A DNA stretch of 64,000 nucleotides from Zootoca vivipara (lineage: Eukaryota): contig NC_083283.1 in assembly GCF_963506605.1 (NCBI RefSeq), forward strand, positions 16,554,001 to 16,618,000, read 5' to 3'. Positions 2,797 to 51,193 of this stretch are shown here, in pieces (within the stretch, counting starts at the first letter, position 1; each line of letters begins with the position of its first letter). The translations under genes were made by a program, and so were the position numbers. The notes below the pieces were generated by a model. The model saw nothing but the letters and a program-made list of their open reading frames with translations, had not been told where the DNA came from and searched no databases.

Positions 2797-4917
2797 ATAC
2801 ATTATAGCTACAATTTTTAGATATTTTTAATTAAAAGGGTATCATAAAACATGCAAAGTAATCCTAATAATGTATGCTGGCAACATTGCTAATTGGTTAT
2901 AAGTTGTAAAACCTTTATTTAATTAGCACACAACTAAGATAACACCATCTTTAGTAGCAGTATTGGAGCATCGTAGTGAGATGTTATTTGATGTACACTG
3001 ACATTAATGAGTTTAATTTAACTGCCCAATCAAAGCTCATAGATATAATTAACCCTGCTAGGCTGTGACAAACAGAAACACACTGAAATAAATGTAGATA
3101 TTTAGCGGATTGGTTCCCACCGACCCCCTCCCATTTTTACAAAGCTATTTAAACACAGGAAATTTCGGACTCCTGAGTAACACAGTTTGAAGTAAATTAC
3201 GGTAGTATATAAACTGGCAAATATGGATAGAGCTCACTTTCAAAAATAGCTTGCAAATTAATTCACACCCTAATATTGCTATATTCTATCCCCCACCCCA
3301 TTATAGCAACTGCCTCTTTATGTAGTGAAAAGTATATGGGCACGGGCTTCTCATTGCCCTAGTGCAAAGCGATGGTCAGCTTTTGCTACCAAATTGCCTC
3401 TCTACGGTGTCTCATAGAACACAATAGAAGCCCTTTAGAACTGAACTGGCATTAAAAGTAAAAGCAGCAATTGACAGAAATTGAGATCAGTGGTGTGTAT
3501 CTGGCATGTATTTCCACAGTGGATTTATTCCCCTCGTCCAATCCATATCCATAATACAGTCCTAAGTTCCATTTCTTGGTGGTACTAGAAAGCATAGGAA
3601 CCAGTGGGTAGTTGAGTATGTATGTATGTATGAATGTATGAATGTTTGTATGTTCCCTTTCTTCCATGACATAACTGAATATATGAGATGATATTATCAG
3701 TGAACAGGAGTGATGAGCGGAGTGATGAGCAAGCCAAGGGAGAATCCATCCTCTCCATTCTGGCATGTGTTACACTAGCGTATAGCAAAGAGTACAAGTT
3801 TTAAAAGGCAGAAATATTCATGCAGAGATGTTATTTAATGTAACAATAGATATATGTAAGGCATTTTAGACTATCCCAGTAAAAGAGAATTGAGTGTTCA
3901 ACTTACTTGCCTGAACTTTGGGACCTTATATCATAATCATAATATTTCCTCTTGGCTTATTGAGGAGCTTACACTTCCTAGAACAGAATCATAGAGTGGG
4001 AACTTCAACCACTACTGTTCTTACGAACTAAAGGTTTCCACTTCTTATTAGACACCGAAATCATGGTGAATATTTATTCAAAATTAGATTTTTAATAGAA
4101 TAAAGCTTGAGAGGCAATCACCGACACAACTTGTTTGACTTCGAAAAAGAGGCTAGAAAGTTGTGGGGTGAAGGAGCCAGGTCAAGCAAGCAGACACCTC
4201 TGTAAAGGTGCAGGTGCTGTTAAGGAAGTTGGCTTGTTTTGCATGCTGTCTAGTCTAATGTTGGTTTAAAAATGGTGATATGCATAATTCATGAGTCACA
4301 ATCATAGTCACTTAAAACATTGATCTTCAACAAGGGGTCGTGATATCCAAGTAACTTAAGGTGGGAAGAGAAAATAGGGAGGGAGGCAGAGGAAGTTATC
4401 CTGGTCCAATAAACCATGGTTTTTCAGTCCAGCAACAAGCTGTGTGCCTCCTTCCCTCCCTCTCTGTCTCACATGTTTGGTTTCAACAAATCTGTCTTGG
4501 TTTCTTACCAACTGGGGTATCAAACCAAGATCAGATTTAAGATCTTGTAGTTTAGACGATCCTCAGTCAATATGGTCATTATTAGGTTTTTTGTGCATTC
4601 AGGGGACTCTTGAAAGTAACATAAAAAGGTGTTAGGGTGGGGAGATTTGATACTGGCTAAAGCACTTTGATACCAGCCAAACCATTTAAAGGGGGCGTTG
4701 ACACATTTTTTAATTATATAAAATTAAGGAGCCGGTTTCCAGTGCTTGCTTTGACCTTCTGTCCTCTTGATTTGAGGAAGCCATTTCTTTAAACTGTTTC
4801 CCTGCAATGGCTTGATGTGGTTCAGCAACTATAACTGGGGATTTGCACAAGCAGTTCTGCAAAGCTTTGCTTAGCAATGCTCTTTTTATTTATGATGTTA
4901 TTGTGTTTTATATGCAG

Positions 4918-5982
<1,065 letters not shown>

Positions 5983-13092: not shown

Positions 13093-13457
13093 AAGGTCAA
13101 GGACTCCTACATGGTTAAGTCCAGTCAAAGGCAACTAATGGGGTTGCTTTCAGGCCAAGGGAGCTGGCATTTGTCCACAGACAGCTTTCCGGGTCATGCG
13201 GCCAGCATGACTAAACCGCTATTGGCACAACGGAACACTCTGACGGAAGCCAGAGCGCACGGAAACACCGTTTACCTTCCCGCCACAGCGGTACCTATTG
13301 ATCTACTTGCACTTGCATGCTTTTAAACTGCTAGTTTGTCAAGAGCTGGGACAGAGCAACGGAAGCTCACTCCATCGCAGGGGTTCAAACTGCCAAGCTT
13401 CCAATCGGCAAGCCCAAGAGGCTCAGTGGTTTAGACCACAGCACCCACTCGTGTCCC
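13093..13457 (-). mobile_element. Sauria SINE (older subtype)
   Basis: Reverse-complement head gggacacgagtgggtgctgtggtctaaaccactgagcc; TSD ttaacctgta at 13083-13092 and 13458-13467. Confidence 0.9.
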
Positions 13458-28178: not shown

Positions 28179-28356
28179 CAGGGCCGTCTCAAGCACGTCG
28201 GGCACCCTGGCGCCATGGTGCGGAGATCACTCCGGCGCCCCCCGCCCCGCTCCGTTTCTTGCCGCGGCTGGTGGGCGGGCACAGCACGCAGCATGATTTA
28301 CACGCTGCTCTGCTGTGCAGCGCCCCCCCCCCAGCCTACCCCTAGAGCCGGCCCTG
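28179..28356. mobile_element. GC-rich hAT MITE (CAGGGCC TIR family)
   Basis: TIRs plus 8-bp TSD actgcaac. Confidence 0.9.
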
Positions 28357-34623: not shown

Positions 34624-34970
34624 GGGCCATTATGTCATTGAACAGCTGCTACAAAAACTAAGGACTAATTAACTGGAATAGAGTTACTATCGTAGTCTTT
34701 TAATGATATTCTATTTGATTTACAGGGAAGATCCTTAAAAAATGCCTATATGGCATGTTGTCCCCCCCCCCCAACTGGGCACAGCAGCATCAAAAGTGAC
34801 TTCTGAGCATGCTCCGCCCAGTTCCAAAATGGCGGCAGCGCTACTTCCGGTATGCTACTTCCGGTCCGGTCCCTTATTTTTCAGAGAGGAATTTGGCAGG
34901 TATGCTTTCCCCACAATTTAAAGACAGCAGCTTCCACTCAATACAGTAGTGGCTGGTGGGGTAGAGTGGG
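34624..34970 (+). repeat. Composite local duplication of three downstream segments
   Basis: 34624-34737=34968-35079; 34747-34774=35241-35267; 34773-34970=36957-37154. Confidence 0.9.
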
Positions 34971-36742
34971 CCATTATGTCATTGAACAGCTGCTACAAAA
35001 ACTAAGGACTAATTAACTGGAATAGTTACTATCGCAGTCTTTTAATGATATTCTATTTGATTTACAGGGAAGATCCTTATAAAAGAAAACTGAATGATGC
35101 TGGTGTCAATGTACGCCCCAAAAGATAATCAAAAACTCTTTAATTTTTAAAAGAAAACTATTTGAGAATGTTAGGAGGGCAGAGGTTAATTAGATGAGTT
35201 TCCAGCAGTGTGATGGATAAATAATGGGCCACATCCTAAATATATGGCATGTTGTCCCCCCCCCCAAGTCAACCTTGATCAACAGTTTATAATTTAATTG
35301 ATACACAGAAGAGAATTAATGAAGGACCAAGAAATTTTACATCACTCTGACAGGACCAAACAATATGTGATGTTAATCATGTAGCAGGGTTTTTTTTTGA
35401 GGTGCGGTTGTTTTGGTAATACAAATTAAATGCTGCTGATCGTTGGAGCTTTCAATAATAATCAGGGTTTTGCGAGCCCCAAGGAGCAACTGATTTGCAG
35501 TGCTTGCGACCCCTGCTTTCGGCCCAGCTGTGTCTTCATCTACCCCATTCCTGACTTCATATATGACATCAGGCGTTGTGCAAGTGGCCATGGCTTGACC
35601 AGAAATCTCATAAGCCAAATGAGGAGCCCCCCCTGGCTGATGGTAAGGTTGCACAAGGCTGGCTTTTATCATCCCTTTTTATGTATGAATGGAGAACAAC
35701 CCAGTCAAGCAAAAAGTCAGGCTTCTCCATTGACTAGGAAAGTGCCTTAAAGTTTAATTCAACGTTACTTACACTTACAGCGAAAAAAAGGACAGAAATA
35801 AGCCGTTGTAAAACCAGTGAATACTTTTACCTCGTCTAAAGCCACTCTTGAGAGAGATTATACTAAGAAGATTACAAAAAATATGACATTGGTCATATTT
35901 TCCTCCTGGGCGCGTAGAAAACAAATACATCTTCGCTTTTTCCTCTCCTTCCTTTCCCACCCCACCCAACTCTTGGGGGAAAACTAGGTGTGTGTATATG
36001 TGTGTTTATATTACCACGAAGGCTTAGGTTGTCATTTCATTAAAGAGCATGATTGGCATAAGTTTGGGGAAACCTCCTTGCAGGCTTAATTCCATACTCT
36101 CAGGACAATGCTAATTTTTTCCAAATGCTACAGCTGGCACTATCTTTCTCAGTTAGCTAAGAGTTGTCTATTGTATTGGCTACTCACCAGATTTATGGTC
36201 TTTCTCAAGCAGACGGAAATGCTCATTTTTTCCAGTTTTCCAAAGGGTAATAAAACATTTGTCATTGATCTTAGTTCCCAGGTCCCTTGTGAGTCTGACA
36301 TAGGCCAAACCTTCTCACAGTTTTGTAAATGATGATATTTTAAGAGCCTGGCTTTCCTTTCAGGCTAATACAGGGACAAAGGGCCCTTGTATCGGGCACT
36401 GGACATAATATGTAATAAAGAGGAACATGCAGAGTAAATTCTCATGATAATGTTCTACAGCAGGCATCCCCAAACTTCGGCCCTCCAGATGTTTTGGACT
36501 ACAATTCGCATCTTCCCTGACCTAGGGATCGTGTAAGCAGCAAGGTTTCCGGGGCAAATGGTGTCTCGATTTTCAAAGGGAAATGGAGAAAAAACTCACT
36601 ACCTAAATTAAAACATCACCACTGCCACCTGTCTGTCTGCTAGCCTCTTTTGAAATGCCCTAAGATAAGGAGTTCTCTCTTCCCTGCCAGAATTAAGCTA
36701 ACCAATGGAATGAGCTTCAGCCTACCCATTACCTCCCTTTCC

Positions 36743-37088
36743 CATAGCTGCCAAGTCTCCTGTATTCCCCGGGAAACCCCCCTTTTTCCAGCTGTCCCCA
36801 GCCAAAAAAACAGATTTTTTTTGTTTCCCCCCGGTTTATTCTGGCGCGGCGGCCATTTTGGAACTGGGCGGAGCATGCTCAGAAGCGACTTTTGATGCTG
36901 CTCTGCCCAGTTCCAAAATGGCTGCAGCGCGACTTCTGGTGCGGTGGCCATTTTGGAACTGGGCACAGCAGCATCAAAAGTCACTTCTGAGCATGCTCCG
37001 CCCAGTTCCAAAATGGCGGCAGCGCTACTTCCGGTATGCTACTTCCGGTCCGGTCCCTTATTTTTCAGAGAGGAACTTGACAGGTATG
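36743..37088. mobile_element. hAT-type element with CATAGCTG/CAGGTATG TIRs and internal inverted repeats
   Basis: TIR catagctgccaagt / acttgacaggtatg; repeated ccattttggaactgggc / gcccagttccaaaatgg. Confidence 0.8.
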
Positions 37089-39056
37089 CTTTCCCCACAA
37101 TTTAAAGACAGCAGCTTCCACTCAATACAGTAGTGGCTGGTGGGGTAGAGTGGGGTGGGATGATTTTGCTTCTCTGTGTGGCGGTGACTGGCGGTAACTG
37201 AGAGGAGAGGAGCGTGGCACAGGGGAGGTTGCCATGGTTTGGCTTGTCATGAGTCTGAAGTGAGGGCTAGCTGGTGGCAAGGCAATTGACTCAATTATTT
37301 CAGTAGTTATATGTCAGTTGGTGTTGGGAATTGAAAAAATGCAGACAGGTATGAGAGGAGGAAGACGGTAAGTCAGTTGGCTGCTGATGTCATGGAGGCA
37401 CTTGAGGCTACACAGCCAGTCAGACTTCCTGTGCTTTCCCTCTTTGCAGTGCCTGGAGTGAATTTTCTCCATTCATTCCAGAAAGTGGTTCAGGAAGCGA
37501 AAGGTCATAATGCTAGACAGTCTTGGCTTTTTACTCGATACAGAGAGGCTTGTACACACACAAAAGGGAGGGGAATGTTAAGCTCTTCAAATGCAGTGCA
37601 AAAAAGTGCAATTCTAAATATAAGATAATTCAAATATCTGGTTATCTGGTGACCCCAATGCCAGTAATGCTGGCTGAGGCTGATGAAAACTTAGCCCAAA
37701 GATTCTGGAGGTATGAAGTTAGCTACTTCTGGATAATACAATACTGAGCTACATGGACCCAACAGTCTGGCACAATATAAAGCAGTTTCCTGTGTTTTTA
37801 TATCAATGCTGATATCAAGGTGAGGGACAACAAAAGGTAGGCTTTGGGAGGAAGTTAATCCACACGAGACCATAGTGAATTGATAAATGTCTGCCTATTG
37901 CTCTGTTAACCATGGATGTCTTCTAATATTGGGCTTAAATTGTTATTGGAATGTTATCATTTTAATGTATCGCTATTTAGACTGCAAACTACACTGAGAA
38001 CATAACTGACAAAGGGTAGTATATAAATCGGACTAATAAACAAAACACATAATAAAATAATAAGCCCACCAATTTTATATAAAAAAACCCAGCTCATCAA
38101 AAGAAAAACAAATAAGCAGAAAGAAAAGCAGTTAAGATAGCCTGCTACATAGATAGGGATGAATCATTAAAACCGAAAAGGTTTAATCGTGCCAACCATG
38201 ATTGCTCTCCTTTGGGCACAGTACTCCATAGCTTTTAAGAAAAGGACTTAAAAACAACACCAGGTTTTTTGGTGGGGGACGGGGGGCGGTCAGAAATCCC
38301 ACACACAATCCAACAGGTTGATTTCCCCCCTGAGAATAAAGCCCCTGAAATGCAAACATAATTCTGTTTAAGAGTAATCACGATGGGATGGAAAATGACA
38401 GAAACAGAGATTCAAGGTTGATGTTTGTGTACTTAGCTCATGCTGAGCACGGATTCCTTACTTGGAAACAGGCAGGGCATGAGCGGGTTAATGATGGGTT
38501 TCTTGGAGATCCAAAATGCATCTGTTCTCATTGCCTTTTCTTTTTTAAAAAAACCACACACAACATAATTCATAGACATGATTTATAGAACGAACTACAT
38601 CAGTCCAAATTTCTGTGTTCCAATATTCCTGCCAATTTATATTACAGCTCTAATTAACTATATATCATGACATGCTGTTTCAGCGAAGTCCGGAGGAAAA
38701 TGTCTGCCCTCTATCAACCTGGCCTGATGATGTGGTTATGGAATAACATTCAACTAATGAGTGGGGGGCATTGGGACCTCCAGCAAACGTTTGAGGGAAA
38801 AAAAAGGATGCTTTCTGATGGTGAGTGTGTCCAGGTAACGGATGCTTATGTTCCTGATTGGACTGTATCCCGGAGTTGAGGGACCTTTTTCTGCCTGAGG
38901 GCCACATTCCAGGGGTCATTTTTCAAGCCGTGTATTAACTTGAAGCTCCAGGCGATTATGGAGGGCCACCTGTTTTCATCAATGGATACTTTAAAGCTAC
39001 TCTGCAGTATAAGTGTCACACTGAATAAAGTAAAATATACTTGAAAAGAAAGCAGA

Positions 39057-46396: not shown

Positions 46397-46916
46397 ATAG
46401 AATCATAGAGTTGGAAGAGACCACAAGGGCCATCCAGTCCAACCCCCTGCCAAGCAGGAAACACCATCAAAGCATTCTTGATATATGTCTGTCAAGCCTC
46501 TGGTTAAAGACCTCCAAATAAGGAGACTCCACCACACTCCTTGGTAGCGAATTCCACTGCCGAACAGCTCTTACTGTCAGGAAGTTCTTCCTAATGTTTA
46601 GGTGGAATCTTCTTTCTTGTAGTTTGAATCCATTGCTCCGTGTCCGCTTCTCTGGAGCAGCAGAAAACAACCTTTCTCCCTCCTCTATATGACATCCTTT
46701 TATATATTTGAACATGGCCATCATATCACCCCTTAACCTTCTCTTCTCCAGGCTAAACATACCCAGCTCCCTAAGCCGTTCCTCATAAGGCATTGTTTCA
46801 AAGCCTTTGAACATTTTGGTTGCCCTCTTCTGGACACATTCCAGCTTGTCAGTATCCTTCTTGAACTGTGGTGCCCAGAACTGGACACAGTACTCCAGGT
46901 GAGGTCTGACCAGAGC
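46397..46916 (-). mobile_element. CR1 LINE 3' fragment
   Basis: [22 protein letters not shown]...RTRSNGFKL...[17 protein letters not shown]; tail ccaactctatgattctat. Confidence 0.95.
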
Positions 46917-47058
46917 ATATGGGAATATGATTTCGAAGTCTGCGACTGGAAGAACAGATTGGTGAAAATAGACTGCCTTGCCTTGTGGTAGTTAAGGCAC
47001 TCCCACTAGTGCAAACTCACCATGTGATACAATCCTACACTAAACAAATATACATCCC

Positions 47059-47227: not shown

Positions 47228-47590
47228 CCTGGATAGCTCAGTCGGTAGAGCAGAGCTTTCCAAACTTTTCATGTTGGGGACACAATTTTTAGACATGCAT
47301 CATTTCATGACACAGCAATTCAGTTTTACTATCAAACCAGAGGATAAACTAACCCCTTTCCAGCCCCGGGGGAAGCATGGTGAGCATTTGCACGACACAC
47401 CTACACACTACAGCCGACACACTAACGTGTTGTGACACACAGTTCAGAAAGCTCTGCGGTAGAGCATGAGACTCTTAAATGCTGGGTCATGGGTTGAAGC
47501 CCCACGTTGGGCAAAAGAGTCCTGCATTGCAGGGGGTTGGAGCAGATGACCCTTGTGGTCCCTTCTACTGATACAACGATATGATCCTAT
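47228..47590 (+). mobile_element. tRNA(Lys)-like SINE with CR1-type tail, interrupted by a hAT element
   Basis: cctggatagctcagtcggtagag|catgagactcttaa...gggttgaagccccacgttgggc...cctgcattgcagggggttgg. Confidence 0.85.
47251..47456. mobile_element. hAT non-autonomous element
   Basis: cagagctttc / gaaagctctg TIR; 8-bp TSD cggtagag. Confidence 0.9.
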
Positions 47591-47721
47591 CTGTATGTCA
47601 TATCTGTGTGGAGACATGGAAGACGACAAACTTAGGGGTCAGGAAGGATAGGAGAAAATCTTTGGCAGTGATATAGAATATGTACCTAGAGAGGACTGCT
47701 GCTAACAGTTGGGCAATATCA

Positions 47722-48520
47722 AGCAGCATCTTCCCCGGCCACGGTCACCACCTGCGCTCTGTGGCGGCGAGGCGCGTGGGGCTTAGAGAGCAGCAGCCCC
47801 TTCCCCCCACCTGCCCCTCAGGCGCTTTCCCACCTTCCTCTTCCTCCCTCCTCAGTCAGCGGCGGCGGCAGAGGCACCACCCCCCTGCCACCCTCCCTCT
47901 CGGCCAGGCGGCGCACAGGTGGCGAAGCTCGAGGCTGAGGGGCACGCTGGCGGCGACCAGCGCTAAGAGTGCTCGCCGTTGCCCACCGGCCATGGCCCTC
48001 CCGCCGCTGTTGCTGTGGCATCAGCCTGCTGCTGCTGCGCCTCCTGCTGCTGCTGCTGGGTGCCTCTGCCTCGGCGGGGGCGGCCCCGCCGTGACCCTCC
48101 TCACCACCCAGGGTGGACTCGGTGCAGGGGCTGGCCTGGTGCGCCTCAGTGGTGATCGAGGGCAAGGTGCTATCTCACAGCGTGGTGGAGCCAGGAGGAG
48201 GCGGAGGCGGCGGAGGAGGAGGGGAAGAAGCAACGTCGCTGTTGCTACTGCTGCCGCCGCCACCACCGCTCCTCACCCTGTCAGAGCAGCAGCAGCCGAC
48301 TGCCGCCTCTGCTTCCAGCACCTCCTTCTCAGGGAGTGTCCCCTCGCCCTCGCCAGCTCCCAGGGCGCCGGTGCTGAGCCCCAGCCTGCCCAGCCCGAGC
48401 CCACCGCCCATTTCCTGGGTGACTCGGGTGCATGTGCACCAGGTGTGGCCAGCCAAAAGTGGCGGGCTTTTTGCTTATGGGGGGCAGGTGCCCCCCTGCC
48501 CTGCGCTGGGTACGCCCATG
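47722..48520 (+). mobile_element. 3' part of a Pack-type hAT element (now inverted relative to its 5' part)
   Basis: Ends ...ggggggcaggtgcccccctgccctgcgctgggtacgcccatg, followed by atcccagg (48521-48528). Confidence 0.8.
47917..48468 (+). pseudogene. NRG1: Captured, decayed fragment of the NRG1 type II (GGF2) first exon
   Basis: LLLLLLGASASAGAAPP*PSSPPRVDSVQGLAWCASVVIEGKV ... RVHVHQVWPAKSGGL matches recalled GGF2 LLLLLGTAALAP...CYSSPPSVGSVQELAQRAAVVIEGKV ... LVKVHQVWAVKAGGL; in-frame TGA at 48092-48094 where GGF2 has Cys; cut off by the TE end. Confidence 0.85.
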
Positions 48521-48528
48521 ATCCCAGG

Positions 48529-48757
48529 AGCAAAGGGGGGACAAATGCAGAGAGCAAAGGCAGAAGCTAAGGGCTCCCAGGTTCCTGTCATGTTGGCGCC
48601 AATCGAGACACGCGCCACTTCCGGATTCTGATTCGGACTAGAGAAGTCATGGACTTTTTAGCTCTGTCTTGTACATATGTATATAATGAAACTCTGTAAA
48701 AACCAACTACGGAGTTTGGAGCCTCTTACTTGTGAGAAGCCTACAAGTGCCCTTACA
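48529..48757 (+). mobile_element. 3' part of a solo LTR (in the inverted segment)
   Basis: Ends ...cccttaCA, followed by 5-bp ggtcc (48758-48762). Confidence 0.65.
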
Positions 48758-48821
48758 GGTCCAGTCTCTGGGGTTGCGGCGCTCATCTTGCTTTACTGGC
48801 CGAGGGAGCCAGCATTTGTCC
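48758..48821 (-). mobile_element. Sauria SINE body fragment (its tail is at 49572-49603, + strand)
   Basis: ggtccagtc.tctggggttgcggcgctcatcttgctttactggccgagggagcc continues the reverse complement of the tail ggacctaacggtcagg...acctttaccttt. Confidence 0.8.
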
Positions 48822-48907
48822 CTCTTTGCATTTCCAATATCTGTCCCGACAACCTTCACTCAGCCATACCTTGTATTTCTGGGAAATGGTACATTCTAGC
48901 CTCTGCT

Positions 48908-49297
48908 GGCAGGAGCAGCTCCTGCAGTGGCTGAAGCTGACTGACGGAGGAGAGGCAGGGAGGCGGCAGAGTGAAAGAGAGGCCCTTTGGTGTGGTGCCA
49001 GGCTCCCTAAAGGTCCAATCCCATGGCGCGATCCTATCGCCCTCACCCACCCTGCCACCCCCTCTCGCCTGCCCGACCCTCCCATCCTCTCCAGCCAAGC
49101 AGGGTAGCCTCCGACGCCGCCAGCCCCAGAAGCACAAGGTGGCCGCTGCAGCCGCCGCCACCGCAGTGTCGTCGGGCCCGCTGGCCCTGTAGCCCCGCCC
49201 ACATTCACACTTTGTGGCGCCTCCCCTCCCGTGCCTTGGCCCCACCCCTGAACGACCATGGCTTGCCCCCCCTGATTTGATCCTGGGTATGCCCCTG
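48908..49297 (-). mobile_element. 5' part of the Pack-type hAT element, carrying GC-box/CCAAT-rich DNA
   Basis: Reverse complement begins caggggcatacccagg (13/15 match to the other TIR); flank 49298-49305 cctgggat is the reverse complement of atcccagg. Confidence 0.8.
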
Positions 49298-49305
49298 CCT
49301 GGGAT

Positions 49306-49571
49306 GAAGGGGTGGGAACGTAGCTTCCCCCCGCCCAGAACTGCTAAACTGTTGAGCATGTTCTCTGGTTTCTGACACTTCTCCCTCTGCAGCGCTCAGG
49401 TCCGACACTTCCGATCTTCCCCACTGCTCCTGTGATCTGTCAACATCCCCTGGGCTCTTCCCCACTGCAGGAGCCTTGGCACCAACCTCTGGGAGATGCT
49501 CTGAGGCGGCAGCATCTTGCAACCCTTCCACCAATCCGTTGGACTCCCTGACCCCTGGTGGTCCTCTGACA
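49306..49571 (-). mobile_element. 5' part of the solo LTR
   Basis: Reverse complement starts TGTCA and is preceded by ggtcc (from 49572-49576), matching the 5-bp TSD at 48758. Confidence 0.65.
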
Positions 49572-49606
49572 GGACCTAACGGTCAGGCGTACCTTTACCT
49601 TTATAG

Positions 49607-49905
49607 TAAAAGGTAAAGGGACCCCTGACCATTAGGTCCAGTTGCGGATGACTCTGGGGTTGCGGTGCTCATCTCGCGTTATTGGCCGAGGAAGCTGGCG
49701 TACAGCTTCCGGGTCATGTGGTCAGCATGGCAAAGCCGCTTCTGGCAAACCAGAGTAGTGCACGGAAACGCCGTTTACCTTCCCGCCGGAGCGGTACCTA
49801 TTTATCTACTTGCACTTCGACGAGCTTTCGATCTGCAGGAGCAGGGACCAAGCAACGAGAGCTCACTCCGTTGCGGGAATTCGAACTGCCGACCTTCTGA
49901 TCGGC
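49607..49905 (-). mobile_element. Sauria SINE
   Basis: aaaggtaaagggacccctgaccattaggtcc...gaattcgaactgccgaccttctgatc. Confidence 0.9.
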
Positions 49906-51193
49906 AATTCACCCTGAGTGCTACACAGGCATTAGGAAGTTGGGGCAGACATTTTTCTATCCCCCAAAATTAAATGCATTTTCACCCAGTCGCCGCAACC
50001 AGTTTTCAAATAATGAAAATGTTTGAATCTCCATTTAGAATGAATAAAGGCTGTGAAAAGCAATGGACCAGGAAAAGTTAAGTCAAAATTGGAAGGAAGC
50101 TTAGTGATGGTACCCTGAGTTCCCTTCTTGTATTCCCAACCCAACACCACCATTTGGGTGATGAACTGGAAGAAATAGAAGATTCCAGAATGTATTGGAG
50201 TCTGTACAAGCTTATGCACGCTGACACTTCTTTTTGGCTCTCCCCTTCCAGGAATTTTTCAACTGCCATATGAAAAAAGATGTCAACCACGAGGTATAAT
50301 TCTACTGCTATTTCACTTTTACATCCTCTCCAACCACCCACCTTACTCTGGCGACTTTTACTAACAAGTGAGCCAAGCAGCTTCTGCAAATGTGCTTTAA
50401 AGGCAATACTATAATTTTAACAATTCTGAAAGTTGTTGGCCTAGTTGTGTTTTTTCTCTCTCTCTTTACTGAGGTGGCAAGCCAGAGTTTGGCCTGTACA
50501 ACATCCGAAGGCTGGTTGGAATATGACTGAATGTGCTTCTATTAAAAGCAATAATTACGGTACCTGCACATAGAAAACTAATATATCTGGCAATGTGCAA
50601 GGCTAGAATTATTTTACCTGACATCTGTTTTTTAATATGAACAGGGGTTTTGCTCTGTTTCATATGGAGGAACATTCAGTCAGTGAGCCCTCACCTGAAA
50701 GCTGAACTAGTTTAGCAGCTCAGTGAAATGTAGGCCACTATTTCTTCATTGTGTCTATATAGTTTATGCTGGAAGTGCAACAGCAGGGATCATTCATTTG
50801 GTAACTTAAGGGGTTAATTCTGCTCAGTGTTAGTCAGCTACCCAAGATGGGTGGTCATGGAGCTGTTGCTTAACAACCGGCTAGGGTGATGTGATCTTCA
50901 TTGAGGTAGCATGTGTCCTGATTGGCTATGTAGTTTTGAGAAAGTTTTCTCTTGTATGTTTAGCTGAATGTTCTCCCAGCTATGTACAAAGCCTAATGGA
51001 ATAAAGACAAAACTTTTCTGTTCCTTTCTCCTCAAATTATACACTGTTTTTTGTCTTGACCCACCAGTATCAGCATTTATTTTCTCTCCAGACTCCATCT
51101 GCATTATTTAAGTAACTTTGCTTACAGATTTGTATGTAAATCTGTATGTAAATATATGTAAATTTGTATGTAAATATATGTAAATTGTATGTA

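Follow-up and report, generated by a model that had tools for sequence, protein, structure and literature searches.

The 64-kb stretch of Zootoca vivipara DNA analyzed here (hereafter, the window) contains the last coding exon of TRPS1, which was identified by protein search as an open reading frame (ORF) at 4816-5982 that includes an N gap (5148-5287). The best 6 of its 186 matches are Lacerta, Podarcis and Zootoca proteins with 100% rounded identity, and other lizards score within 1-2 bits of these lacertid proteins. Along with the cargo tree described below, these matches indicate lacertid DNA. Approximately 42 kb downstream of this exon lies a stack of transposable elements (TEs), a 59-61% GC island in a window background that is mostly 37-47% GC. 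Four N gaps interrupt the window, none of them in 33226-55348 or within 7 kb of the stack. Elsewhere, a segment at 34624-34742 recurs at 34968-35084 (115/117 identical) in a complex local duplication, and the DNA between the two copies is a patchwork of 35241-35265 (25/25) and 36957-37154 (195/198). This duplication (34624-35084) has the look of template switching in several steps or of an assembly artifact; taken together with the four gaps, it indicates that the assembly is not flawless.

Several other elements were observed in the window. These include a GC-rich hAT-type element at 20088-20315, which has a perfect 8-bp duplication and a terminal inverted repeat (TIR) unlike that of the stack hAT, and related pieces at 18753-18930 and 28179-28284. 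Closer by, a 206-bp hAT-type MITE (47251-47456, 8-bp duplication at 47243-47250 and 47457-47464) lies 270 nt left of the stack, inside the head of a tRNA-derived SINE, making this a second nested pair near the stack. A minus-strand fragment at 46410-46920, presumably from a LINE and resembling the 3' end of a CR1 reverse transcriptase, returned no match in a Pfam search.

The innermost component of the stack is a hAT transposon, present as two separated parts. One end (48470-48520, mapped on the plus strand) comprises a sub-terminal GC hairpin (48479-48496) and a 15-nt TIR (48506-48520). The other half (48908-49297, minus strand, 68% GC) consists of GC-rich internal DNA and a matching 15-nt TIR at 49283-49297. 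With starts at 48520 and 49297, the two ends both read along the minus strand, the wrong arrangement for a TIR pair, and 13 of their 15 bases are identical. When the window was scanned for this TIR allowing up to three mismatches, four matches were obtained: these two and two unrelated-looking ones. Abutting the TIRs are the two copies of an 8-bp target site duplication (TSD), at 48521-48528 on the plus strand and 49298-49305 on the minus strand. One is the exact reverse complement of the other (8/8), an agreement expected by chance at about 1.5e-5 given local composition. The relevant passages of PMC3014272 characterize hATs of Anolis by an 8-bp duplication and YARNG termini; the end at 49297 fits the YARNG start, and that at 48520 fits it with one mismatch at position 3. 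We detected no second copy of the stack hAT in the 64-kb window.

The hAT interrupts a second element, which has the appearance of a long terminal repeat (LTR). Its 3' part (48529-48757, plus strand) contains a CCAAT motif at 48599, a TATA-like motif at 48680 and a poly(A)-signal-like AT tract up to about 48700, and ends in ACA, while its 5' part (49306-49571) begins with TGT on the minus strand. TTACA ends at 48757 and is followed by GGTCC (48758-48762, minus strand), the first copy of a 5-bp TSD; TGACA ends at 49571 and is followed by the second copy, GGACC (49572-49576). Between these duplications lie 274 + 237 nt, or 503 nt net, and 8 of the 11 terminal bases match as an inverted repeat. 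TG..CA termini and a TSD of 4-6 bp, the structural marks of solo LTRs in the sections of Goubert et al. 2022 (PMC8969392) used here, are therefore both present. The first-pass annotation of this DNA had called the element a solo LTR, and its ends, duplication and size fit that designation; however, neither a homologue of either half nor a flanked internal region was seen within the 64-kb window. We infer both that the element is of the LTR class and that it was reduced to a solo LTR.

The LTR-like element in turn lies within a 5'-truncated Sauria-type SINE, which is split into a body (48758-48821, minus strand, 86-92% identical to five intact copies) and an (ACCTTT)n tail that, together with the second 5-bp duplication, spans 49572-49603 (plus strand, 84-91% identical to the same copies). 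The two pieces are thus 84-92% identical to intact copies that are 87-96% identical among themselves; the body carries a 9-nt deletion near the break. We aligned body and tail independently with six further copies from the window, and in five of these the two pieces stopped and started at the same GGACC. The sixth (13100-13420), which is more diverged, gave a partial alignment only. The earlier proposal that body and tail join seamlessly therefore holds in 5/6 copies tested. Assignment to Sauria SINEs follows from homology to full-length copies and from the (ACCTTT)n tail, which the consulted portion of PMC13295347 lists for this group. No TSD of at least 10 bp exceeded the null for either the split SINE or its neighbor (see below), and two of three control copies show a clear one. 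This makes the insertion boundaries weaker but leaves the homology unaffected.

A different arrangement would dispense with the LTR: body and tail could be separate SINE fragments, and the ~503 bp could be host DNA or another repeat that the hAT entered before the inversion discussed below. Consistent with this, the 21 nt that precede the tail, which are the first 21 nt of the LTR-like 5' end, resemble the SINE at 9-11/21 positions (empirical p 0.008-0.067, five copies), no LTR homologue was found in the window, and no SINE TSD was found. A true SINE of the same age, at ~11% divergence, would however be expected to match at ~19/21, and SINE origin is disfavored by a log10 likelihood ratio of -2.5 to -5.2. 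The other LTR-like end matches the SINE continuation at only 2-4/21. Both results uphold the reading of a single split SINE, and the two SINE pieces meet at the same 5-mer with TGT and ACA beside it and an 8/11 inverted match. We consider separate fragments extremely improbable.

A neighboring Sauria-type SINE (49606-49907, minus strand), outside the inversion, lies tail to tail with the split SINE. The paired tails form a hairpin at 49569-49642, with 34-bp arms and a 6-nt loop, which has a sub-threshold match to Rfam mir-580 (41.7 bits vs 83). As this hairpin match was the only sign of a structured RNA at the locus, that possibility was set aside. A deletion may have occurred between the two SINEs, both of which lack a TSD.

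Each of the three insertions, then, has ends that point the wrong way relative to each other. The first-pass annotation had proposed that all three pairs, including the hAT TIRs and their TSD, are put right by a single flip of about 47722-48907. Our analysis bears this out: AGCAG, CTGCT, TTACA/GGTCC and TGACA/GGACC all occur at the positions originally assigned to them, and the three marker pairs are jointly beyond chance. Because target duplications are locus-specific, the separated halves belong to the same insertions. All three pairs would be restored by any inversion that has one breakpoint to the left of the TIR at 48506 and its second within 48822-49283. The alternative of flipping the right-hand block was rejected, as it corrects orientation but leaves the nesting unrestored. 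Recombination between inverted SINE copies was also rejected, since it would flip the whole stack and leave internal orientation unchanged, as was a transposase-driven inversion, since neither breakpoint falls at a TIR.

The candidate breakpoints are AGCAG (47722-47726) on the left and CTGCT (48903-48907) on the right, which together form a 5-nt inverted match. Changes in GC content at 47720-47736 and 48892-48915 bracket both breakpoints independently of this microhomology. The first-pass annotation had offered the two 5-mers as a plausible breakpoint pair, and plausible they remain, but the microhomology itself is no better than chance. An inverted 5-mer arises in 0.67 of shuffles of the 46 x 36-nt zones and in 0.42 of those limited to the GC change-point intervals, and a second register (CAGCA, 47724-47728 and 48904-48908) fits equally. 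The exact breakpoints may coincide with AGCAG and CTGCT. No inverted repeat longer than 5-6 nt was found to link the two zones. Hairpins were dismissed as a cause of breakage, as folding is unexceptional at both breakpoints (z -0.96). A 17-nt palindrome with 8-bp arms (48909-48925) starts 1 nt from the right breakpoint; it is rare in local shuffles (0.001), although the window has 44 overlapping palindrome calls, of which this is one that was spotted post hoc. It could conceivably mark a fragile site.

On the proposed flip, the 81 nt of DNA beyond the SINE body (48822-48902, minus strand, 43% GC) would be host sequence formerly contiguous with 47721, the edge of the left host flank (47570-47721, plus strand, 41% GC). 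The base composition of the 81 nt agrees with that of the left flank, and 1.3% of random 81-mers come as close. Composition was nonetheless discarded as evidence of flank continuity, as the control proved to be without power (adjacent 0.024 vs adjacent-flipped 0.026). Coding or LINE-derived sequence in the host flanks would have pinned down the left breakpoint; six-frame Pfam searches for it yielded a single match at E 0.15 and nothing above chance in the left flank, and a HMMER search with one of the three frames of the left flank against 1.84 billion representatives gave 0 hits.

Two explanations other than an inversion at this site produce the same geometry. In the first, the animal carries the stack un-inverted, and the flip is an artifact of assembly or library preparation. 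The assembly is of draft type, with its four N gaps and a second templated duplication at 34624-35084. Moreover, one breakpoint lies inside DNA of 68-70% GC (70% over 47727-48470), and read coverage is often thin in very GC-rich DNA. Against this, inverted repeats longer than 5-6 nt, on which a graph assembler could turn, are lacking between the two zones, a clean two-breakpoint flip requires two chimeric joins, and there is no gap nearby. Misassembly is possible but decidedly unlikely, and the inversion is presumably present in the animal.

In the second explanation, LINE machinery copied a read-through RNA ending in the (ACCTTT)n tail of the SINE, with inversion of the 5' part on insertion (twin priming), which implies that 48822-48902 came from the donor locus and that an un-inverted source copy exists elsewhere. 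The non-inverted part does end exactly in a Bov-B-type tail (tail type as described in part of PMC13295347), and twin priming is the commonest class of inversion in the sections consulted of a human survey, at 1,047 of 1,849 calls (PMC12350158). The cases in that survey are, however, L1 insertions, the literature passages searched contain no Bov-B example, and the left flank is not duplicated after the tail or after the neighboring SINE (null 0.83 and 0.35). Such a retro-duplication, while possible, is highly unlikely. On the sequence evidence, a single inversion of ~47722-48907 through a SINE, an LTR-like element and a gene-carrying hAT is supported as the simplest account.

The gene fragment carried by the hAT is from NRG1. 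Read through one stop codon, 47992-48469 (plus strand) gave six protein matches, the best of them in Podarcis lilfordi (E 1.5e-60) and Lacerta agilis (E 3.4e-25). NRG2 was considered as the source owing to the label of the L. agilis match and a Pfam NRG2_N hit (E 0.005). It was ruled out by the longer relatives of the Podarcis match, 107 of 112 of which are named pro-neuregulin-1 or NRG1 as listed, the six best included. The NRG1 model of P. raffonei also starts within the same exon. At the protein level, 134 of 152 aligned residues are identical to P. lilfordi; the threshold of at least 90% applied to the parents of Pack-TIR elements, each a unique copy without the TE at its flanks, is a DNA criterion. 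In a tree of 12 rows, none of them dropped and none an NRG2 sequence, the cargo groups with two lacertids (support 95/94) on a branch of 0.13 vs 0.016 and 0.035; the turtle row was untrimmed to the N-terminal part, and its placement is unreliable. We take the exon, partly from what is known of GGF2, to be that of type II NRG1, so that the cargo would comprise the first ~160 codons of a GGF2-type first coding exon. Type II NRG1 is defined by an N-terminal kringle-like exon in the portion of PMC10051646 consulted.

Only 47992-48469 could be matched to NRG1. Later NRG1 exons had no match in 47500-49700, and comparison of 48908-49297 with NRG1 at the protein level gave nothing above noise. The GC-rich DNA upstream of the start codon (47727-47991, plus strand) is contiguous with the NRG1 ATG at 47992 and is probably the 5' UTR of type II NRG1. 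The remaining ~600 nt of GC-rich DNA are probably NRG1 upstream DNA and TE ends. With a single partial exon that is cut mid-exon at 48469 and lies between TIRs with a TSD, the insertion is neither a retrocopy nor a segmental duplication.

The captured exon has decayed. It carries a frameshift just after the ATG and a stop at 48092, in place of a conserved Cys codon, and is cut after an SGGL motif in mid-exon. In two conserved blocks, the cargo is changed at 6 of 61 residues, one of them to a stop, compared with 1 difference between Podarcis and Lacerta; four of the six are consistent with single CpG transitions from the inferred parent codons. A 192-codon ORF (47992-48570) runs in a shifted frame from the captured ATG through the hAT end into the LTR-like part, and the inverted segment holds, in one orientation, a native ATG, this alternative-frame ORF and LTR-derived 3' signals. 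Such a frame is open in 0.032 of dinucleotide shuffles and, being one of six, is unremarkable. Judged from its sequence, the NRG1 piece is a dead pseudo-exon decaying neutrally, and no function is indicated for the cargo or the ORF.

The NRG1 exon appears to have come from a different chromosome. The NRG1-type exon of L. agilis is on a 40.4-Mb contig and its TRPS1 on an 86.6-Mb contig; in P. raffonei, NRG1 and TRPS1 are on contigs of 42.1 Mb and 92.5 Mb. The two genes thus reside on different lacertid chromosomes, and the capture was interchromosomal if Z. vivipara shares that karyotype.

Taken together, these features suggest a history of four steps, which as a whole we regard as likely. First, a 5'-truncated Sauria SINE would have inserted at a neutral site ~42 kb downstream of TRPS1. 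An LTR element would then have entered the SINE, oriented opposite to it and duplicating 5 bp, before recombination left a solo LTR of ~503 bp. Into this LTR a non-autonomous hAT of ~1189 bp would have inserted, duplicating 8 bp and consisting of ~1 kb of GC-rich DNA between short TE ends. Template switching or gap repair would have copied the start of the NRG1 exon, as DNA, from another chromosome. Finally, two breaks, one in the hAT cargo and the other ~81 nt outside the SINE, would have been rejoined with a segment of ~1.19 kb inverted. This rejoining presumably required no long homology and took place through end joining or replicative template switching. The inversion would leave both hAT ends facing the same way, rendering the element immobile as a unit, and would part the NRG1 exon from 390 nt of the upstream half of the element.

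The order of SINE, LTR, gene-carrying hAT and inversion had been put forward in the first-pass annotation. The nesting fits it, but dates arrival at this site only, and not the capture: the LTR may already have contained the hAT on arrival, and capture of the cargo may have preceded or followed the hAT insertion. One version of such a history has the hAT already resident in the LTR of a parent retroelement elsewhere, so that the loaded LTR arrived in a single step. Nesting alone fits either order, and hobo of Anolis shows that composite elements can stay mobile (part of PMC3014272). A 1.2-kb GC-rich insert in U3 would, however, have to survive reverse transcription, and no second copy was seen within the window. 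We judge arrival of a loaded LTR very unlikely and retain separate insertion of the LTR and the hAT.

Whether capture preceded transposition or took place where the element now lies is about even. In the available text of Tan et al. (PMC8277862), most single-copy Pack-TIRs are attributed to in-place gap filling and multicopy ones to template switching followed by transposition; the latter are distant from their parents and GC-rich, and in the frog three of five interchromosomal cases are multicopy. The copy count of the present element would therefore discriminate between in-place gap filling and capture-then-transposition in lizards. The six protein matches included no second lacertid pseudo-copy, a weak indication.

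Inversion and nesting are ordinary when taken singly. Combined, they provide an unusually complete internal clock that records four ordered events on one allele, and for each event a specific intermediate allele is predicted in related lizards. Few records exist of lizard DNA transposons capturing genes; the present lacertid hAT contains a coding exon of a developmental gene, apparently from another chromosome. The locus also calls for caution in annotation, as fragments of this kind can pass for neuregulin paralogues and rearranged Pack elements escape searches for TIR pairs. We speculate, as a doubtful extension, that the stack is a fossil member of an undescribed multicopy family of lacertid Pack-hATs that moved the type II NRG1 CpG-island first exon and upstream DNA between chromosomes, and that lacertid hATs routinely do so with GC-rich first exons; a chimeric transcript near TRPS1 is conceivable under this reading.

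Each component of the stack can be compared with a known system. In the consulted sections of a survey of small balanced inversions in humans, the median size is 1,565 bp, and inverted repeats border 45 of 257 (PMC12350158), so a repeat-free inversion of the present size is usual. The inversion described here is likewise near this median and has no long inverted homology, but is deduced from internal markers rather than from two alleles. The LTR-like element resembles the solo LTRs treated in part of PMC8969392 in its ~500-bp length, TGT start, CA end and 5-bp TSD. It differs in being broken by a hAT and by an inversion, and may be of the Gypsy or the ERV class. The Podarcis-type Sauria SINE described in a section of PMC13295347 shares the (ACCTTT)1-2 tail, whereas here only ~90 nt of the 3' end are present, without a detected TSD, and the likeness is drawn from the tail and the copies in the window.

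For the hAT itself, hobo_AC of Anolis carolinensis (Novick et al., PMC3014272, in part) is also a lizard hAT with an 8-bp TSD that contains extraneous genomic DNA. Its reported cargo consists of old TE fragments, whereas that of the stack hAT is a gene exon. The TIR of hobo_AC (TAGGCTTG..) and the other Anolis hAT TIRs of Table 1 in that paper differ from that of the stack hAT, for which comparison by eye with the table gave no match. Animal Pack-TIRs number 370, of which 208 are hATs, in the sections consulted of PMC8277862. The lists there contain 0 for anoCar2 and 0 for the garter snake, genomes with 77 and 3 annotated DNA TE entries, respectively, and the zeros in these two squamates probably reflect too little TE annotation. 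NRG1 is absent from the 12 supplementary files of that study that we consulted. The open-access literature searched yielded no report of the stack element or of exon-carrying hATs in lacertids.

The closest parallel is Pack-hAT-N8_XT of Xenopus tropicalis (Tan et al. 2021, PMC8277862, in part), in which non-autonomous hAT ends and a TSD surround 100-5,000 bp of host DNA. The stack hAT is built likewise, with about 1 kb of non-TE DNA between its ends, 478 nt of which are NRG1 coding sequence. With its 5' genic, GC-rich cargo from a distant site, it is also similar to the multicopy Pack-TIRs, which in the frog include a piece of the CAPSL 5' UTR (same source). It differs from the Pack-TIRs in those sections in having a squamate host, 160 codons in its cargo and an inversion that splits it, and on account of this split the pipeline used there would miss such an element. 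Every single step in the formation of the stack is of a known kind, and with its coding exon the hAT adds a new lacertid case to the Pack-hATs.
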